A stretch of 63,833 nt of DNA, filler included, from Welwitschia mirabilis (Eukaryota): assembly GCA_051453625.1 (NCBI GenBank). It is 4 parts of one record of this genome, joined end to end, with 100 filler letters (N's around TTAATTAATTAA, not from the genome) between each part and the next. Parts side by side here need not be neighbours in the genome. Positions count along the whole stretch, not along the records: positions 47,456 to 61,333 come from JBOZIK010000001.1; 3 more parts are not named here. One strand, given 5' to 3'. Shown in pieces: positions 21,500 through 63,833 of the stretch. The first letter of the stretch is position 1; every line of letters starts with the position of its first letter. The notes beneath the pieces were generated by a model. The model was not told where the DNA came from. It ran no database searches and saw only the letters and a program-made list of their open reading frames with translations. The position numbers and the translations under genes were made by a program.

Positions 21500-21599
21500 N
21501 NNNNNNNNNNNNNNNNNNNNNNNNNNNNNNNNNNNNNNNNNNNTTAATTAATTAANNNNNNNNNNNNNNNNNNNNNNNNNNNNNNNNNNNNNNNNNNNN
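21500..21599. other. Artificial scaffold linker N44-TTAATTAATTAA-N44
   Basis: Exact 100-bp construct; the 12-mer is a six-frame stop; repeated at 47356 and 61334. Confidence 0.97.
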
Positions 21600-33849: not shown

Positions 33850-35140
33850 GCATAATGAACTATGGCTCGATAGCTGTCTTAGGTATAAGAGGAGAAGAAG
33901 GAGAATGCTTAGGATCTATGAGGAAACGGACATCTAGAGATGTAGAGATAGATCTGACTGTCTCATTGTCCTAGATACGAATAACCTCAAAAATGTTTAT
34001 AGTCACATTCTTCTAAATGGAAATAATGCACTAGCACATGTCAACCATATGGTCCTCGATGTGCTGTACTCTCCTCTCAATAGATAGGATCCTTTGCTCA
34101 AATATTTATTGTCTCTGATCAAGAGTCTGTGTCCTTTGATTGAGTACTTGTGTCCTCTGATCAAGTGCATAGATTATCTAATCAAGTGTATGGATATCTT
34201 TGTCCATGAAACCTCTGATGGTCTTGGTGATCTCAACTAGGAGAACCGAAATCTGCTTAAGTATAGCTCAAATCACAGGTCTTTGTAGCTGAAGTCTCTT
34301 TATCCTAGAACCTATATATCCATGTCTTATAAATAGTGAGCAAATGTTTGAATGTGTGATATATGCTACCCGCCCATGGGCTTTGGTATCTCATACTATT
34401 TAAAGAGTACTAAGAAGAGGCATGAATAATTAAGTTTTTGAAGGTGTCATGCCTCTATCATAGATTTGAGTTTCCTCTAAATGAATGTAGGTAGGTCCAT
34501 CTGCTTTCCTTGTCTGAAAGTTGCTAAAATATGTAAAGATACCACCATGGCGTGAGTATCGTGGAAAGATGAGCTAATGTTATAAATCAGTCCTCTATGC
34601 AATGCTCTGTATGCATGGATTAGTTGAGTAACATTTACCTCTTATTGATCAGTAGTCAAATCAGCTGATATATCCAAAATGACACCCTAGGCTCGACACT
34701 CCTCAGTACCATCAGCTAAGTGTATGTGCATACTCCCAACCTTACTAAGATCTGTGATAACTACAATGTGGGATGGGAGAATGGCTATCTCATAATCCCA
34801 TATAAATGCAATGATCATGTCCTGTAGCTGACCACGAGCGTCAGGTCACCTTTCTATGTGCATGGTGTCATAGAAATCTCTCATCTCTGATACATAATAA
34901 GATCCATGTGCATCTATAATCCATTGGAGCCATAGGTATATCAGTCTCTAGTCTATATTAGGATTAATATGGCTTATGAAGTCATTAAAATGCTACTCAA
35001 CATGGATGCTAGCAATCTGTATACTCAAGAAATGACTGTGTTAAGGTGGCGAATGTGTAGAATCCACATGCTCNNNNNNNNNNGCCTCCTACTCTACTAC
35101 CTTAGCCTCAGCCTTGGCTTATCTAGCTCTATGCATACAT
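33850..35140 (-). pseudogene. Athila 'env-like' / putative plant transposon protein ORF with C-terminal coiled coil
   Basis: Manual translation gives YYVSEMRDFYDTM, IAILPSHI, AYRALHRGLIYNI, GKQMDLPTFI and LNYSCLF, then LDQRTQV-LNQRTQT-LDQRQ*I-FEQRILS-IERRVQH-IEDHMVD. Several stops. Confidence 0.75.
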
Positions 35141-43700: not shown

Positions 43701-46260
43701 TACAAAGATTTAACAGCTATTCCTACCTCTATTATTCAACATAAAATCTATTTTGAAGATAATGCAAAACCTGTTAGGAAACCCCAACATACACTAAATT
43801 TAACTCTTAAATAAATTATAAAAGATAAAATAATTAAGTTAATGGATGCTACAATTATTTATGCTATAGCTGATAGTGAGTAGGTTAGCCCTTTGATGGT
43901 AGTATGTAAGAGAGATGAGAAAGGAAGGATGTGTATTGATTTTAAAAAATTAAATAAAGTAACCTAAAAATATCATTATCCTTTATCTTTTCTCAATCAG
44001 ATATTTGATAGAATTCAAGGACATACTTTTTATTATTTTCTTGATGCGTATAGTAGTTACAATCAGGTTTGCATTACTAGTGAGGATTAGGCTAAACCTA
44101 CTTTCACTTCATCATTTAAAACTTTTTCTTTTAGATGCATGCCTTCTAGACTTTACAATGCTCCTGGTACTTTTTAACATGCAATGATGGGTATTTTTTT
44201 AATATGTTAGAGGATTAAATAGAAATTTTTATGGATGACTTCTTTATCTATGATGAAAGATTTGAACAAATCTCATAAAGATTAGAAAAAGTCTTAGATA
44301 GATGTATTACTAGTGGCCTACATTTGAGTTGGGAAAAATGTTTCTTTTTAGTTAATAGTGGAATTGTCTTAGGTCACCATATTTCTAATAAAGAAATTAG
44401 GATGAACCTTGAAAAGATTAGAATCATTAAAAACCTAAATCTTTTAATCAATGTAAAACAAGTTTAATCCTTCCTTAGTCATTATGGTTTTTATCATTGG
44501 TTTATTTAAGATTACGCAAAAATTTATAAACCACTTCACTCATTACTAGAAAAAAAAGTTAAATTTGATTAGAATGAATTTTATCAGCTTGCTTTTGATA
44601 TACTTAGATCTCTTCCACTTCTTTTGTAATGAGACCTAATTAGAATAAATATTTTGAATTAATGTGTGATGCTAGTAATATTGCTATGAATGGGGTGCTT
44701 GATCAAAAATATAAAAATGATTTTAAGGTTATATCTTATTATAGTAAAACTCTATCAAAAGCTCAAATGAATTATACTGCTAACAAAAAAGAAATATTAG
44801 AAATTATCTTTTACCTTGATATGCTTAGACATTATCTTTTAGACTTTCATACAAATATTTATACTAACCATGTAATAATTCGATACCTTGTGACTAAGAA
44901 AGATTCGAGTGCTAGACTGATTCGGTGAATCCTCCTTATGCAATAATTTAATTTAACCATCATTGATAAATTAGGAAAGCATAATAGTATAGCTGATTAT
45001 TTATCACATCTTTCTTCCTCTCTTAATAATCTTATAATGATGATTTGTTTCTATATGAATAATTTTTCGCTATATCTTCTACTCATCCTTCTCCTTCATA
45101 TGTTGATATTGTTAATTATCTTGTTATTATGAAAACACCACAACTTTAAATTTATAATCAATAAAATTATTTTTTTCATAGAATACATGATTATAAATGG
45201 ATAGAGTCACATCTTTATCATAAATGTGTGCCTGTTGGAAAAAATCTAATATCCTTCATCTTTATCATGGTGATGTTTGTGGAGGTTATTTTCATGATAG
45301 AAAATAGCTATGAAAATTCTTCACTTTAGTTTTTATTAGCCTAGTCTTTTTTAGAATTCTTTCAATTTTACTAGAAGATGTAATACTTATTAGCATTATA
45401 TTAGCATTATTTGTGCTTAAGAAATGCTCCTTAAACCTATTCTTGAATTTGAATCTTTTGATTATCGAGAAATTAATTTTATAGGCCCTATTTACCCACT
45501 TTATAATGATAACAATTACATTTTAGTAACTATAAGTTACATTACTAAATGAGTTGAAGTTATTCCTACTTCTATGAATGATGCCCAAACTATTTATACT
45601 TTTCTTAAAACTCATATTTTTCAACATTTTAGTTTTCATAGAATTATCGTTAGTGATCAAAGAACTCATTTTATAAATTAAATTTTTAGAAAACTTCTTT
45701 TATCTATTGGAATATAACATATAGGAGCTTATGCTTATCATCCATAAATCAATGGTCAAGCTGAAAATGCAAACAGAGAAATTAAAAAAATGCTATAAAA
45801 AATTGTCTTTGTTAATGCGAAATCTTAGGCTTCTAAGATTAACAATGTTTTTTAGGCTTACCATACTAGTTAGCATAATTTTCTTAGTTTTTTCACCTTA
45901 TGAACTTGCATACTGAAAAGTTTGTGTTTTACCTATTGATGTGTATTATAACTCTTATCATTCTTCTCATCAACTTAATCTTGTAGATCTTTATGAGAAT
46001 CTTAAACATAGGTTAGCCTGACTTAATCACTTTGATAAAAAACATACTCATGCTATACATCATCAATTAGTTCACAAATCCCAAGCTAAATTCAAACATG
46101 ATAGAAATCTACTCCATAAAATATTTGAACCTAGTCAATGTGGCCTTTTATATAATATAGAGTACATCTTTGAAATAACAAGTTAATCTCTAAATGGTTA
46201 GGTCTTTATCTCATAGAGAAAGTGCATTCTAATGGCTTTATTGAGATTTTATTTAATAAG
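40740..46260 (+). pseudogene. gag-pol pseudogene (gag, aspartic protease, RT, RNase H, integrase)
   Basis: LIDIGTSVN and LLLGRAF (42691-43248), IQHKIYFEDNAKPVRKPQ (43590-43814), FLDAYSSYNQ (about 44040), FMDDF (about 44228), MCDASN..YTAN..E (44662-44928), YHP*INGQAENANRE (about 45735). Confidence 0.95.
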
Positions 46261-47355: not shown

Positions 47356-47455
47356 NNNNNNNNNNNNNNNNNNNNNNNNNNNNNNNNNNNNNNNNNNNNT
47401 TAATTAATTAANNNNNNNNNNNNNNNNNNNNNNNNNNNNNNNNNNNNNNNNNNNN
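47356..47455. other. Artificial scaffold linker
   Basis: N44-TTAATTAATTAA-N44. Confidence 0.97.
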
Positions 47456-48216: not shown

Positions 48217-49560
48217 TGTTGTAAAGCCAAATTGTGGAAATTTGATAGTGTATTTTAAGTACTTTTGAAGGACATTTAAATAGGTTTTGATTTAATACTG
48301 ATGACTATGAAGATCTGATAGGATGAATAATAAAACTTGTGATACTTGACATTTTTGGCAATTTCTTAGGCATATTCTAACACTGCAAATGTGGACAAAT
48401 GACTTTATAATGCAAAAGAATGACTTACCTTTGAGATTAGAGAAAATAAAGATTATTGTCCCCTGTGTCATCCCCACAACAGGTAGGACAATGATACTAT
48501 TGTCATGGACAAAGGCTACAGGGCTGACAGTAGTACATGAAGCACATGAAGATATGTGACACATAGCATTGTTCCATATGTCATCTCCATAACATGCAGG
48601 ATGATGACACTGCTAATATGAATAGAGGCTATAGGGCTGACAGCAGCACATGGAGTACATGGAGGCATTTGGTACATGGTTACATCCCCTATGTCATCCT
48701 AATGACCAATAGGATGATAGGTGTTTTTGCATGTTTAGAAGAAATATCTTTGTAAATGGGATCAAGTAACGCATGTGGGTTGTTAGAGTTTTTGTTTCTA
48801 ACCTTTAGGATTTTGGTTTTAGAACATCAAATAAAAACCTATAAATATCCTTCTCCTCCTTTATTTCTATCTCCATCTTTTATACCCAATACTTGTGATG
48901 GAGGATTGAAGGACAAGAAGTCCATCCTGAGCTATAGAAATAAGTCTTCTTGATGTTAGACTAAGTCTCTTCCATTGAGATGCTTTTATTCTATTGTAAG
49001 TGAATGTTATGTTTTGAATACTTTTTGAATTAATACAATTTCTCTTCATTTCAATTCTATGAATGTCCCTTGTAATTTAAATTGATCATAGTTATTTGTG
49101 ACAACTCTGTAATTTATCTAGATCATAAGAGAAACCTTTGTTAAGGTTGAGCTTGGTTAGTAGTTAGATTTACATTTCTTTTATAATTTATTTCATATTT
49201 CATTTCTTATATTACTTGAATATATTTCATAGTTTATGTTGATTAATAAATAGTGGATACTCCTTTTAATTATGATAGAAGGACTAGGATCTAAGTAGAA
49301 TATATTTCCATTTCCATTTGCTGCATTTTATATTTATTCATCTTGCATTGCATTTACTTATTTACTTCCTCCTTTTTTTATAAGATAAAAGATTAAAAAT
49401 ACCTTTGGAAATCAGTTCTCTAACTCTAACCCTAGTTCCTTTGTTGGATTATAACATTCGGGTCAACTCTTATCTATACTAGAATGTGTTCTTCTATAAA
49501 TTATTTGATTTACAGGTTTACCTAAAGAGCTTCAGGATTACATAAATTCACATCACAACA
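48217..49560 (+). repeat. 5' LTR (TGTTGT...ACAACA)
   Basis: Terminal inverted repeat TGTTGT/ACAACA; CCTATAAATA at 48838; homologous to 58909-59517. Confidence 0.9.
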
Positions 49561-58908: not shown

Positions 58909-59517
58909 TGTTGCGATGCCAATGTGTAGGAATTTGATGATATATTTTGAGTGCTTTTACAGGATATTTATATAGGTTTGGATGCAATACCGATGATTAT
59001 GGAGAACTAATACGATGATCATTAACACATGCAATTCTTAGCATATTTGGAGGTTTCTCAGGCTTATTATGATACAACATTCTTTGGAAGAAGGGTTCAC
59101 CATGAAAAAGACTGATTTACCTTTGAGATTAGAAATAAAGAAGCTTGTCATTACCACGATAGGTAGGACGATAATACTGCTGACGTGGGGTTAACAATGG
59201 GCCTTGAAGCTGATGGAGTACCTTTTAACGTAGAGTGACATCCCCTCTATTGTACTCACGATAGTCAAAACGATAACTATTTTTCTATGGTCAGAAAGAA
59301 TTATCTTTGTAATGGGGTCACACTACCCATTTGAGCTGTTAGGGTTTCTTTTCTGACTTCTAGGGTTGAGCTTCTAGAACTTCAATGTAAAACTATAAAT
59401 ACCCTTCCCCTCCTTCATTTCTGTTGCTATATTATGTAGCCAATATGCTTGTGAGGGAAGATTGAAAGACAAGAGGTCCATCTAATAGCTACAAAGAGGA
59501 TTTCCCTTAGTATTAGG
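58909..59517 (+). repeat. 3' LTR, 5' half (truncated by gap)
   Basis: Follows AGGGACTAATAAAGCTAAGTAGGGGCCTA; begins TGTTGCGATGCCAA; CTATAAATAC at about 59393. Confidence 0.85.
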
Positions 59518-59637
59518 NNNNNNNNNNNNNNNNNNNNNNNNNNNNNNNNNNNNNNNNNNNNNNNNNNNNNNNNNNNNNNNNNNNNNNNNNNNNNNNNNNN
59601 NNNNNNNNNNNNNNNNNTGGGAGTCAAGAGTTGCAAT

Positions 59638-59787
59638 ATTGGCTATTGAGGATGACTTGTGTCCTTTTCATTCTAATAGAGAGCACTGCATTGCTTCCGT
59701 GGTTTTTCCCCGCATTGGGTTTTTCCATGTAAATCTGGTGTGTTGATGTTTGCTTTTTGCTTTTGCTCTGCTGCATTTTTTCTAACA
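59638..59787 (+). repeat. 3' end of a copia-type LTR abutting the LINE
   Basis: CCGTGGTTTTT..GGGTTTTTCCATGTAAATCTGGTGTG..CTAACA is typical of Tnt1/Tork-like LTR ends. Confidence 0.65.
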
Positions 59788-61333
59788 CAAACAAGGCTCA
59801 AGTGTTTTCCATTAATTTTCGTCTTCAGCTTCTCGGCAAAGAATAGCGGAGGGTTGAGTCTTCTTCCTTCCCTCAAAGTGAGTAAGAAATTGAAGTAGAG
59901 CCCTCTGAGTTTGGAGTGATTCCCATCTTGAATGATAAACCTGTCTAGGAACTTCGTTGCCAGGGCCCAAATCTTCTTTAGCTTTGCTTTTCGGATGTGT
60001 CCTTTTGCGTTTTTAGGTGCCCTATGCCCAAAAAAGCGATCAGCATCCGATGCCCATAGAAAGAAGGGAGCATCAAATCTCCCTCTTTCGTCAGGCTTGT
60101 GGTCCATACAGTTAAATTCGAGGTCACCAAAATCCTCCTTTTTGCTACCATGAGTTTCCCCTTCACAACTGCCTTGGCTGTATTCAAACTCGAGTTGCTC
60201 TGTAACTCGACCATACCCTCCCATTCCACATGTTGTATCCAATGCCAAAGCTCCTCATTGCTTCTAAATTTTGTACTGGCTGTAGGTTTATAGCGGGGGT
60301 GCTTCCTCATCCTCTTTATCACCCAATGAGCTTCTGTCTTCCTTAGGATGAGGAATGTCATTTCTCGTGCGCTTGGTACCACCCCAAAAAAGATGCGGTT
60401 ATTTCGGGCCCTCCACATGAACCAAAGCACAACTTTCTAGCCTTTATGAGTTGCGAGAAGAATTCTTTCCTAGGTGGCCTTCTTGTCCATTGCCCTCCAC
60501 CCCTCAGTCATAAAGGGGCAGTCCCAAAATAGATGTTGCGCCGCTTCTGCTCCTCCACATGCCAGACATTTCTTCAGAACTCTTCCACTGCTGTGCCTTA
60601 ACCTTACTACCGTTGGTAGTTTGTTCTTCTGAATTAGCCATTTGAGAACTATGTACTTGCCCGCGAGTCCTTTTTTCTAGGTGTCTGCCATGATTTTATT
60701 ACTACTGTACTTCTTAATTAATATTGCCTTTGTAGAAATCCTCCGAACATCAATTAGACGACAATCTTTTTTGTTAGGCGCTATATTCACTCCTTGAAAA
60801 ATTTTCATTAGAGTATTATTGCCTTTTTCGTTTTCTTGGTTCTCCCCTGATAGCTCATTGATAGATTTCAATAATTTCTAAGTTTTCTCCTTGCTAACAT
60901 TTCTAGTTCCCCTCTTGTCCTTCTTAGCTCTGGGAAGTCTAACGTGGTCTCACCATTGATGAAACTGGAGTGCCAAAAGGGGATATTCCCTTTGCTGCTT
61001 GACTGGGTAGAGATTTTCTCCAAATTTTCTCTTCCTTTGCAAAGAGCCTTTCAGAAGGGGGAACCTCCTCGGCTCCTAGTTCTTATACTTCCTCTTCAGC
61101 AGGTTTTTCCATAACAAAGATCCCCCCACTTCTAGATTGGTAATAATCTTGACCACGACGAAAAAAAGATACTCTTTTAGGTCTTGGACCCCTCCATCCT
61201 GCTACTTCCACCGACTTAGCTATTTCTTCCGATGCCACTGCATGAAACCTTGTCCCTCCCCTTCCTTCCGCCTAAATGAAATTTTTAACCCGACGATTTA
61301 GAATATTTTTTTACCTTCTCTGGCAAGACACCA
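59788..61333 (-). mobile_element. L1-type LINE ORF2 C-terminal part (zf-RVT) plus downstream accessory domain
   Basis: KYIVLKWLIQKNKLPT (60660-60612), CLACGGAEAAQHLFWDCP (60570-60516), LWFMWRARNNRIF (60430); visibly GC-richer and less decayed than the neighbours. Confidence 0.85.
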
Positions 61334-61433
61334 NNNNNNNNNNNNNNNNNNNNNNNNNNNNNNNNNNNNNNNNNNNNTTAATTAATTAANNNNNNNNNNN
61401 NNNNNNNNNNNNNNNNNNNNNNNNNNNNNNNNN
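61334..61433. other. Artificial scaffold linker
   Basis: N44-TTAATTAATTAA-N44. Confidence 0.97.
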
Positions 61434-61755
61434 CTATTACTTCCCGTCCGTAAATTCTACTGTAAATGAGCCAAGAAGTAGAATCAAACCGACCATTACA
61501 GTAAAATAAATGTACCATTTTGGCTGAAGCTCTGGTATCAGGATCCAAGGCATTCATCCAGCCTTGTTCCTCAAATTTGTGTACAATTTTCATCTCTCTT
61601 TTGAAAGATTGGTAGTCAATCTGCCTCTCAGGAGCTATGGGTCTTTTGTCTAGACCCTCAAACCATGTTTTCTGTGCTGCAGGAGTAACAAACCAGTCTT
61701 CTTTAGAGGCTGGTTTCTTTCCTTTGCGAGAAACTCCAATCTTTGTTCTGACCAT
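61434..61755 (-). CDS. Sirevirus extra ('env-like') ORF downstream of pol, 3'-truncated by scaffold end
   Basis: Open frame from ATG at 61755: MVRTKIGVSRKGKK..KRPIAPERQID..FEEQGW..MVHLFYCN..IYSRIYGREV; same strand as pol, about 300 bp after its stop. Confidence 0.75.
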
Positions 61756-62061
61756 GACTGAAGCAGAGGAGAGCAAGAGGAGCTAGAAAGAAAAGTGACA
61801 AAATGAGGAAAGAGGTTGAAAATGGCAAATAAAAAGAGGTGAGAAAGCGCGGGCATCTGCATCGCCTTTCGCTCGGACGTCTGGGTTAAAAATATGGGAC
61901 ATCCAAGTATTTTAAAAAGATGACGTCTGGAAAATAAATGGGACGTCCGGACTCGGATGGAATAAAATTTATTGAAGAAAAACAAGTTTAGCACAAGGAA
62001 AAAAATTCTCTTCCCAGATAATAACAAATTTTTTGACTGGGAAATAATTATAACAAAGAAT

Positions 62062-63833
62062 TCATGCCTGAGAGGGATAGGACCATATCCCTAAATTCTT
62101 TCTTAGAAAGATGAATCGTTCTTCATTTAGTGCCTTTATCATAATATCTGTAAGCTGATGATTAGTATCAATGTAATTTAATTCAAAAATACCATTTTGA
62201 ACCTGTTCTCTGATAAAGTGATGTCTGATGTCAATATGTTGTATGTGAGAGTGTTGAACTAGATTCTTGATAATGTTTATCGCACTTGTGTTGTCACAGT
62301 ACATCTTGATGGTAGGAATTTCTACACCAAAATCAATGAGCATTTGCTTAATCCAAATGAGTTGAGCACAACAGGCTCCAGCCGCAATATACTCGGCCTC
62401 AGCAGTGGATAAGGATGTGTTTTGTTTTTTGCTTAACCACGATACTAGACAATTTCCCATATAGAAACATGCTCCACTGGTGCTTTTGCGATCATCAATA
62501 CAACCTGCCCAATCTGCATCACTATATCCAACAAATCAAGTGAAGTATCGTATGAATACCATAAACCAAAATTTTGAGTGTACTTTAGATATTTTAAAAT
62601 TACGTTTTACACATAGGTAATGGGATTCCATTGGGTCAGATTGGTATCTGGCACACACACCTACACTATGAGCTATATGAGGTCAACTTGCAGTGACATA
62701 AAGCAAACTTTCAATAATGCCTTTAAATAATTTTTAATCAACCTTCTTACCGCTTTCATCTTTACTAACCTTAACATTCGTAGAATAAGGTGTACAAGAA
62801 TCTTTTCCATCAATCATTCCGTATTTCTTAAGAATGTCTTGAATGTACTTAGTTTGACTAATGAAGATTCCATTTTTTGATTGTTTAATTTGCAAACCAA
62901 GAAAGAAATTCAACTCTCCAACCATGCTCATCTCAAATTCAGTTTGCATAAGCTTGGCAAAGTTTGTTGCTAAACAAAGTTTGGTAGAACCGAATACTAT
63001 ATCATCAACGTAAACTTGAACTATTAAAATATCTTTTTGCTCATGTTTTATAAATAAGGTAGGATCAGCTTTGCCTTTTGAGGAACCATTGGATATGAGA
63101 AATGAATTAACCTATCAAACCATGCTCTAGGCGCTTGCTTCAAACCATATAAAGCTTTAGGAAATTTTGGATCTGTAAAACCAGGTGGCTGAGCTACATA
63201 AACTTCTTCATTTATAATACCATTCAAAAAAGCACTTTTCACATCCATTCGAAACAGTATGATTTTATGAAAGCAAGCAAAAGCTAAAAGCATGCGAATA
63301 GCCTTTAACTTGGCAACGAGAGCAAAGGTTTTGCCATAGTCTATATCTTCCTGTTGACTGTAGTCTTGAGCGACTAATCTTGCCTTATTCTGAATGATAT
63401 TATGATTTTCATCCTTTTTATTTTTGAACACCTACTTTGTTCCAATATCATGCTTTCCTTGAGGGGGAGAGACAAGGTTCCAAACTTTGTTCCTCTGAAA
63501 TTGATGAAGTTCATTTTGCATGGCTAACATCTATGCTTGATCCTTTTCTGCTTCCTGAAAATTTTTTGGTTCAAAGGATGAAAGAAAACATAGAAAACTT
63601 GGACTAATATACTTACCACTTCTTGTTGTAGTCCCTTGGTTTGGATTACTTACTACCAATTCCATTGGATGATCACGTCTGGTTATTTGTGGTAGTGAAT
63701 GAAAATTTTGACCTTATTTAAAAGATTGATTGGAACTTGTAGAGGGAATACCTATGTCGGAAGGAGAAGCATTATATTCATTCAAAGAAATATTTGGAAT
63801 AAAATCTACATCATCATCTTTGTTTATGCTGTT
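62062..63833 (-). pseudogene. Sirevirus-type Ty1/copia pol (INT-RT linker, RT, RNase H) with frameshifts
   Basis: NKARLVAQ.YSQQE.IDY, MDVKSAFLNG, LYGLKQAPRAW, VYVDDIVFGST, FEMSMVGELNFFLGLQIKQ, SLSTAEAEY, CDNTSAI, HIDIRHHFIR. Confidence 0.95.

Follow-up and report, generated by a model that had tools for sequence, protein, structure and literature searches.

Plant L1-type LINEs carry a zf-RVT region in their ORF2, and this ORF2 reportedly occurs with or without an archaeal-like RNase H, as Smyshlyaev et al. are said to have described in 2013. Chimeras formed by LINE 3' transduction or by template switching have as their hallmarks an original and a second poly(A), together with TSDs. In some plant L1s, the RNase H (Pfam RVT_3) comes after zf-RVT (PMC5203782, in extract). 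A sunflower Athila element is reported to carry the family PF20167 (Transposase_32) in its additional ORF at the 3' side; the family is described as related to ATHILA ORF1, and in the Athila ORF the domain occupies residues 133-312 of 487 (PMC11728184, in extract). In bdelloid rotifers, ORF3 types are common to LTR retrotransposons, non-LTR ORF1s, and Penelope-like elements (PMC5408684, in extract). No report of a LINE paired with a PF20167-type ORF was found among the papers listed on Transposase_32 or, by title and abstract start, among those listed on non-LTR additional ORFs.

The locus compared here with these systems lies near the end of the window, by which is meant the whole stretch of 63,833 nucleotides analysed from Welwitschia mirabilis (Table 1). 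It consists of the dead remains of three element types, all of them already known. On the minus strand, a LINE ORF2 remnant, read at its end in a frame called frame A below, is followed by a tail that reaches down to an LTR end at 59787 and that contains a second long open frame, frame B. As in plant L1-type LINEs, zf-RVT and the conserved stretches before and after it are recognisable, and the tail occupies the site that RNase H holds in some lineages. Unlike them, the window copy is without RNase H signal and has instead an LTR-accessory-like tail in another frame; on the 1.7-kb contig that carries it, the LINE is represented by the C-terminal part of ORF2, with no RT, endonuclease, ORF1, poly(A), or TSD in view. 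With the PF20167 and PF03078 (ATHILA ORF-1) proteins, which are additional ORFs of Athila-type Ty3/gypsy elements, the tail shares frame-B motifs that align with a PF20167 relic found elsewhere in the window, and its ESM Atlas neighbours belong to PF20167/ATHILA. It differs from them in having no direct Pfam match, in being shorter between the motifs, and in the lack of the long N-terminal part; furthermore, it adjoins LINE sequence and does not lie within a recognisable LTR element. The presence of foreign sequence 3' of ORF2, copied along in several copies, recalls the 3' transduction and template-switch chimeras, and a mechanism of this kind may be proposed. A last parallel is with the bdelloid ORF3s, where the same accessory ORF type is likewise seen in different retroelement classes; those, however, come from other organisms, belong to other ORF families (GDSL esterase, DEDDy exonuclease, env-like), and are intact, whereas the window copy is a relic (PMC5408684, in extract).

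Table 1. Features of the window around the LINE remnant and its tail, with the related relic at 34.5 kb.
Feature	Position	Strand	Basis
Decayed relic of PF20167 Transposase_32, four stops	34450-35070	-	Pfam E 0.0043, profile 5-151 of 177
100-N assembly gap	59518-59617	.	contig boundary
3' terminal LTR segment of a highly abundant LTR retrotransposon family, with ...CTAACA as its last bases at 59787	59618-59787	+	depth step, loose ends
155-codon open frame B, putative Transposase_32 (PF20167)/ATHILA-ORF1-like relic, cut by the LTR	59790-60254	-	motifs 60158-60054 and 59891-59814
Stretch without recognised homology, from LINE end to putative accessory relic	60159-60361	-	Pfam, phmmer, ESM Atlas blank
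Decayed C-terminal part of plant L1-type LINE ORF2	60362-61065	-	LINE profile and tblastn; stops, frame changes
zf-RVT zinc-binding region of LINE ORF2	60470-60676	-	Pfam PF13966
N44-TTAATTAATTAA-N44 linker	61334-61433	.	identical linker at 21500-21599 and 47356-47455

The contig measures 1716 bp (59618-61333 of the window) and sits between assembly gaps. Three N44-TTAATTAATTAA-N44 linkers divide the window into four parts, the other N runs, of 100-806 bases, being ordinary gaps. A copia pol relic (RVT_2, E 3e-31 and 4e-19) lies past the linker at 61334-61433 and, being separated from the contig by it, provides no evidence through its adjacency. The G+C content of the contig (59600-61200) is 40-46% vs about 15-34% in the flanking scaffold sequence; the contig may perhaps be misplaced in the scaffold, or may just represent a repeat of another type or of younger age.

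The LINE part is recognised by several searches. In Pfam, zf-RVT scores above the cut-off (37.1 bits vs 27.5, E 5.1e-9, profile 27-85 of 85). An exhaustive phmmer search with the 299-residue frame-A read-through (X at stops) against 1.84 billion protein representatives returned 20 proteins at E<=1e-3 (best 1.4e-6), the best stretches all falling within query residues 22-176. Scanned with Pfam, 9 of 10 best-hit proteins harbor zf-RVT, and two of those nine RVT_1 as well; the remaining one, P0006, is repetitive, does not come from a LINE, and is probably a spurious match. A self-built LINE profile of 320 positions, assembled from 13 LINE proteins found by this phmmer search, matches 60838-60362 (76.6 bits, i-E 8.4e-25, profile 132-315 of 320) and, collinearly and in another frame, 61065-60937 (i-E 0.03), which locates a frame change of ORF2 between 60937 and 60838. 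All six LINE proteins compared with the contig by tblastn match it from 60676/60658 to 60344-60419 (E 2e-10 to 4e-12). A word-index protein search with the zf-RVT ORF gave six candidates, none at E<=0.01. By the agreement of the zf-RVT, profile, tblastn, and phmmer matches, 60362-61065 is therefore the decayed C-terminus of a plant L1-type ORF2. Three in-frame TAG stops interrupt it between 60877 and 60437, and the LINE similarity stops at about 60362-60344, by profile and by tblastn alike.

At its other end, the tail is cut by an LTR. Two DNA runs, as contigs, and two RNA runs, as raw reads, were mapped on the contig at 80% likeness. The summed contig depth is 3e4-2.9e5 over 59618-59791 and 20-320 from 59792 on; at this step (59787-59792), loose ends in the DNA and RNA runs share the consensus CTAACAACTGGTATCAGAGC. 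Other copies diverge from the window after 59780 and read CTAACA, then AC, then TGGTATCAGAGC, a 12-mer which we take to be the primer-binding site for initiator tRNA-Met. The depth step, the ...CA end, and the primer site in other copies together identify 59618-59787 as the 3' end of an LTR on the plus strand, and the boundary at 59787 that had been placed there by eye is thus real; the insertion truncates the accessory-ORF relic. Hundreds of RNA reads fall on the LTR end, on both strands and in both RNA-seq runs, and the family is probably among the most abundant, transcribed LTR families of the genome. Within the window, no second copy of this LTR or of the rest of the tail was found, and the LTR end has no likeness to an old LTR-like pair at 48.2/58.9 kb. 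A motif past 59787 ('VRKNAAEQ') that seemed by eye to continue an RNase H proved to be LTR sequence.

Two frames of the tail deserve description, and the peptides quoted in the preliminary description are indeed present in them, on the minus strand. Frame A spans 60877-59978, with three TAG upstream of 60436 and none after; from 60436/60310 down it reads LWFMWRARNNRIF, then MRKHPRY...TSLTKEG, and remains open to 59978 (152 codons). Frame B is open over 60254-59673 and contains DRFFGH...FFAEKL; it is preceded by a stop at 60257-60255, and its first ATG is at 60224. The blank stretch of Table 1 between the LINE end and the putative relic holds the expected ORF2 end as well as a frame-A ATG at 60310. 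The longest open run in 60389-59788 is the 155 codons of frame B; among 2000 dinucleotide-preserving shuffles (mean 73 +/- 19), 0.2% contain a run at least as long. Within 60254-59790, frame B has no stops, frame A five (all below 59978), and the third frame eleven, a distribution in keeping with frame B as the one that coded for protein. Codon position 1 is rich in purines in frame B (0.62), as it is in the LINE coding frame (0.68). The strand of the tail is T-poor (23% T), which makes open frames longer. Frame A is also stop-free for 92 codons beside frame B, a point that counts against the reading favoured below and is only loosely explained by it.

For the frame-A tail, no protein relatives emerged: none of the 20 phmmer matches (1.84 billion proteins) extends past query residue 176, ESM Atlas gave no usable match for 60388-59981 (recognition 1485), and a word-index protein search with the 152-aa ORF gave 130 candidates, none at E<=0.01. 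These results reshape the proposal of a domain of ~170 aa running in frame after zf-RVT, with a frameshift near 60060 joining two peptides. Its frame-A half (60310-60060) is without relatives, and its second-frame half does carry a protein signal; the recognisable homology is, however, wholly in frame B from 60158, overlaps the frame-A peptide, and starts ~200 nt past the end of LINE homology at 60362. Neither the frameshift nor an in-frame extension or fusion is thus upheld, the similarity lying in a frame other than that of ORF2. One extra base after 60050 occurs in a minority of other copies (three contigs of X1, depth 9.45 of 39.7; two contigs of X5, 9.29 of 25), which may leave room for other frame histories. 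A separate third ORF is possible, as the first frame-B ATG, at 60224, comes shortly after the point where ORF2 ends in relatives lacking RNase H.

The identity of the frame-B product is suggested by two methods. In ESM Atlas, frame B (60143-59790, recognition 2429) has as neighbours clusters of "putative plant transposon protein"; PF20167 appears in 20 of 30 matches, the top one scoring 0.92 with 173 of 256 shared features, and PF03078 ATHILA in one row. On the scale of this tool, 0.9 is reached by 4-10% of shuffled sequences, and a match is, by the tool's own account, a lead rather than proof. The second line of evidence is the decayed relic at 34.5 kb, which, read with X at its stops, yields 17.4 bits against PF20167 (cut-off 45; profile 5-151 of 177, E 0.0043), and with a second, overlapping query matches profile 79-176 (E 0.011). 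The frame-B peptide finds this relic (about 34.45-34.9 kb, minus strand) by tblastn (E 0.005) and by phmmer (i-E 0.0066). A C-terminal motif aligns relic residues 133-158 with 59891-59814 (score 55, z 8.0, 0 of 500 shuffles), and an N-terminal motif relic residues 6-44 with 60158-60054 (score 40, z 4.45, 4 of 2000 shuffles). Both are in frame B and collinear, and the other two tail frames stay at z<0.5. The middle of the relic (residues 61-125) has no alignment to the tail (z<0.5), in which the two motifs lie about 37 residues closer together. On the tail itself, Pfam gave no match at E<=10 in any frame, to PF20167, PF03078, or any other family; a PDB sequence search with frame B gave one meaningless match (E 1.6), and a metagenome contig scan gave 426 pattern matches, none confirmed. 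Two candidates for a PF20167 N-terminus chosen by eye were rejected, namely 'MRSF' in the third frame (z<=0.4) and the neighbouring ORF at 61435-61782 (z<=0.4, no Pfam match). The ESM Atlas lead and the relic alignment, each part of an indirect, sub-threshold chain, converge on PF20167, and this convergence bears out the likeness to plant LTR-element accessory proteins that had been suspected; judged from sequence likeness, the tail probably belongs to the PF20167 Transposase_32/ATHILA-ORF1-like family. The frame of similarity is frame B, not that of ORF2.

The pairing of LINE and tail is found in other genomic copies as well. The matches listed comprise 16 of about 4490 mapped pieces, and the statements on linkage hold among these. 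Both of the two-piece contigs among them are collinear over tail and LINE, with the spacing of the window and about 80% identity: X1 record 1 (2017 bp) covers 59839-60041 and 60286-60604, and X1 record 3 (2703 bp) covers 59857-60084 and 60592-60799. One contig among the matches listed, X5 record 8, crosses the junction itself (60152-60377). Per variable site, 1-22 distinct contigs are seen in the tail and 2-22 in the LINE part; setting the summed depths against the depth of a single-copy contig, near 5, gives an estimate of tens of copies. Since the copies are collinear and ~80% identical, the LINE-tail pairing is a repeated unit and no one-off neighbour: the zf-RVT/tail junction recurs in the genome, and the anticipated linkage of tail relatives to the zf-RVT region holds among the matches listed. 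Differences between copies are mostly C>T and G>A; together with the three TAG stops, this dominance fits old, methylated, decaying repeats. RNA reads on the LINE and tail amount to about 1x or none in the two RNA runs. By eye, no A-rich tract was seen anywhere on the contig, the interval 60362-60158 included, nor did a poly(A), a 3' UTR end, or a target-site duplication appear, which counts against taking the unit for a LINE and not for part of a larger repeat.

Several explanations of the tail can be weighed against these data, two of which dispute that it is an accessory relic at all. Its position would be right for an RNase H, as RVT_3 lies after zf-RVT in some plant L1s (PMC5203782, in extract) and in the L1 ORF2s P0022 and P0024; frame B can moreover be threaded by eye on a beta-beta-beta-alpha order, and a low-confidence AlphaFold model has strands and then a long helix. 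That model, an AlphaFold2 single-sequence prediction of 60224-59790, has however a pLDDT of 41.8, too low for use, and ESM Atlas matches PF20167, not RVT_3. Neither in the separate ORFs nor in any of the three read-through frames over 59789-60388 did Pfam find a family at E<=10, RVT_3 and RNase_H included. By tblastn, P0022 and P0024, both RVT_3-bearing, align at 60676-60350 only, with no tail HSP better than E 0.2, and their RNase H domains, aligned to the three tail frames under shuffle control, give z of -0.27 to -1.08. The tail is thus without RNase H signal, in agreement with the preliminary description, and a strongly diverged or decayed RNase H, of the kind found after zf-RVT in many plant L1s, is very improbable. 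Only slightly less improbable is a non-coding 3' UTR or junk with open frames and weak similarities by chance. The T-poor strand that lengthens open frames, the silence of Pfam on the tail, and a similarity made of two short motifs and a language-model search in which 4-10% of shuffled sequences reach 0.9 would all speak for this reading; against it, the two motifs fall in one frame and in the right order (0 of 500 and 4 of 2000 shuffles), an independent method agrees on PF20167, and the open run is matched in 0.2% of dinucleotide-preserving shuffles. The tail is most likely a decayed accessory-protein remnant of the plant LTR retrotransposon type, in a frame other than that of ORF2.

How such a remnant came to stand behind a LINE is the question on which the remaining explanations part. 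The favoured one, to which an even chance is given, is that a LINE-derived repeat, present in the window as a dead copy, had passively captured a Transposase_32/ATHILA-ORF1-like relic 3' of ORF2, the copy being truncated by an LTR. The unit would be a middle-repetitive one, in tens of copies, made of the 3' end of an L1 ORF2 and, ~200 nt later and in another frame, the accessory-ORF relic. A LINE lineage would have acquired the piece 3' of its ORF2 either through 3' transduction, its transcripts reading on into an adjacent LTR element, or through template switching, and the captured piece would thereafter have been copied passively with the LINE, since whatever precedes the poly(A) is copied in target-primed reverse transcription; both the route of acquisition and the passivity of the piece are inferred. 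An abundant LTR element inserted at 59787 has removed the end of the accessory ORF. With the stops and frame changes of ORF2 and the loss of that end to the LTR, nothing in the window copy can be functional. Rather than a passenger, the accessory gene might have been a working part of a plant L1 lineage, as a third ORF or as a C-terminal fusion to ORF2, the window copy having decayed since. This is unlikely, and its narrower form, in which the lineage adopted a Transposase_32/ATHILA-ORF1-type gene as a working third ORF of which the window holds a decayed copy, marginally more so. A junction common to several ~80% identical copies, with contig numbers alike on both sides (among the matches listed), would agree with it, as would the absence of stops in 155 frame-B codons vs three in 159 in the LINE part, an open run longer than 99.8% of shuffles, and an ATG at 60224 soon after the expected ORF2 end; bdelloid rotifers offer an earlier case of ORFs common to LTR elements and retroelements of other classes (PMC5408684, in extract). 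However, the similarity lies outside the ORF2 frame, tail RNA reads are about 1x or nil, and ~22 codons separate the ATG from the domain, against a domain at residues 133-312 of 487 in the Athila ORF (PMC11728184, in extract). At the decay rate of the LINE part, the chance of zero stops in 155 codons is moreover estimated at roughly 0.1-0.15, so that the openness of frame B is weak evidence.

Just as unlikely as a working accessory gene is that the LINE never owned the tail, both pieces being part of a larger repeat, either an amplified LTR element with a nested truncated LINE or a segmental duplication. PF20167-type ORFs do belong to LTR elements (PMC11728184, in extract), no A-rich tract is seen at 60362-60158 or on the rest of the contig, the depth is without the 3'-ward rise expected of 5'-truncated LINE copies, and the contig begins within the LINE, at 61333. 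Set against this are a LINE homology that nearly reaches the natural ORF2 end (profile 315 of 320) and is hence no random cut, a copy number (tens) that is low for an LTR family, and the lack of any visible LTR-element sequence upstream on the contig, though no more than 270 bp precede the first LINE match. If the pairing is truly a property of a LINE lineage, it would be a case, in plants, of an accessory ORF passing from one class of retroelement to another, and would open another, independent context for studying the role of the PF20167/ATHILA ORF-1 domain; if the gene had been a working third ORF, gene sharing between LTR and non-LTR elements in plants would be comparable to that of bdelloid rotifers.

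Other elements are present in the window. An uninterrupted 134-codon frame (MVRTKIGVSRKGKK...) at 61378-61782 on the minus strand follows the copia pol relic (62062-63431) after ~280 bp and runs into the linker; Pfam assigns it to no family, and it does not significantly resemble either the tail or the 34.5-kb relic; an additional ORF of a copia element is one possible reading of it. Two old Ty3/gypsy-like relics on the plus strand, at 41.0-46.5 kb and 50.4-56.2 kb, are mutually 65-69% identical, with an RT_RNaseH match at 44644-44925. Direct repeats at 48217-48926 and 58909-59482 (71-76% identical) look like the LTRs of the second of these relics (50.4-56.2 kb).
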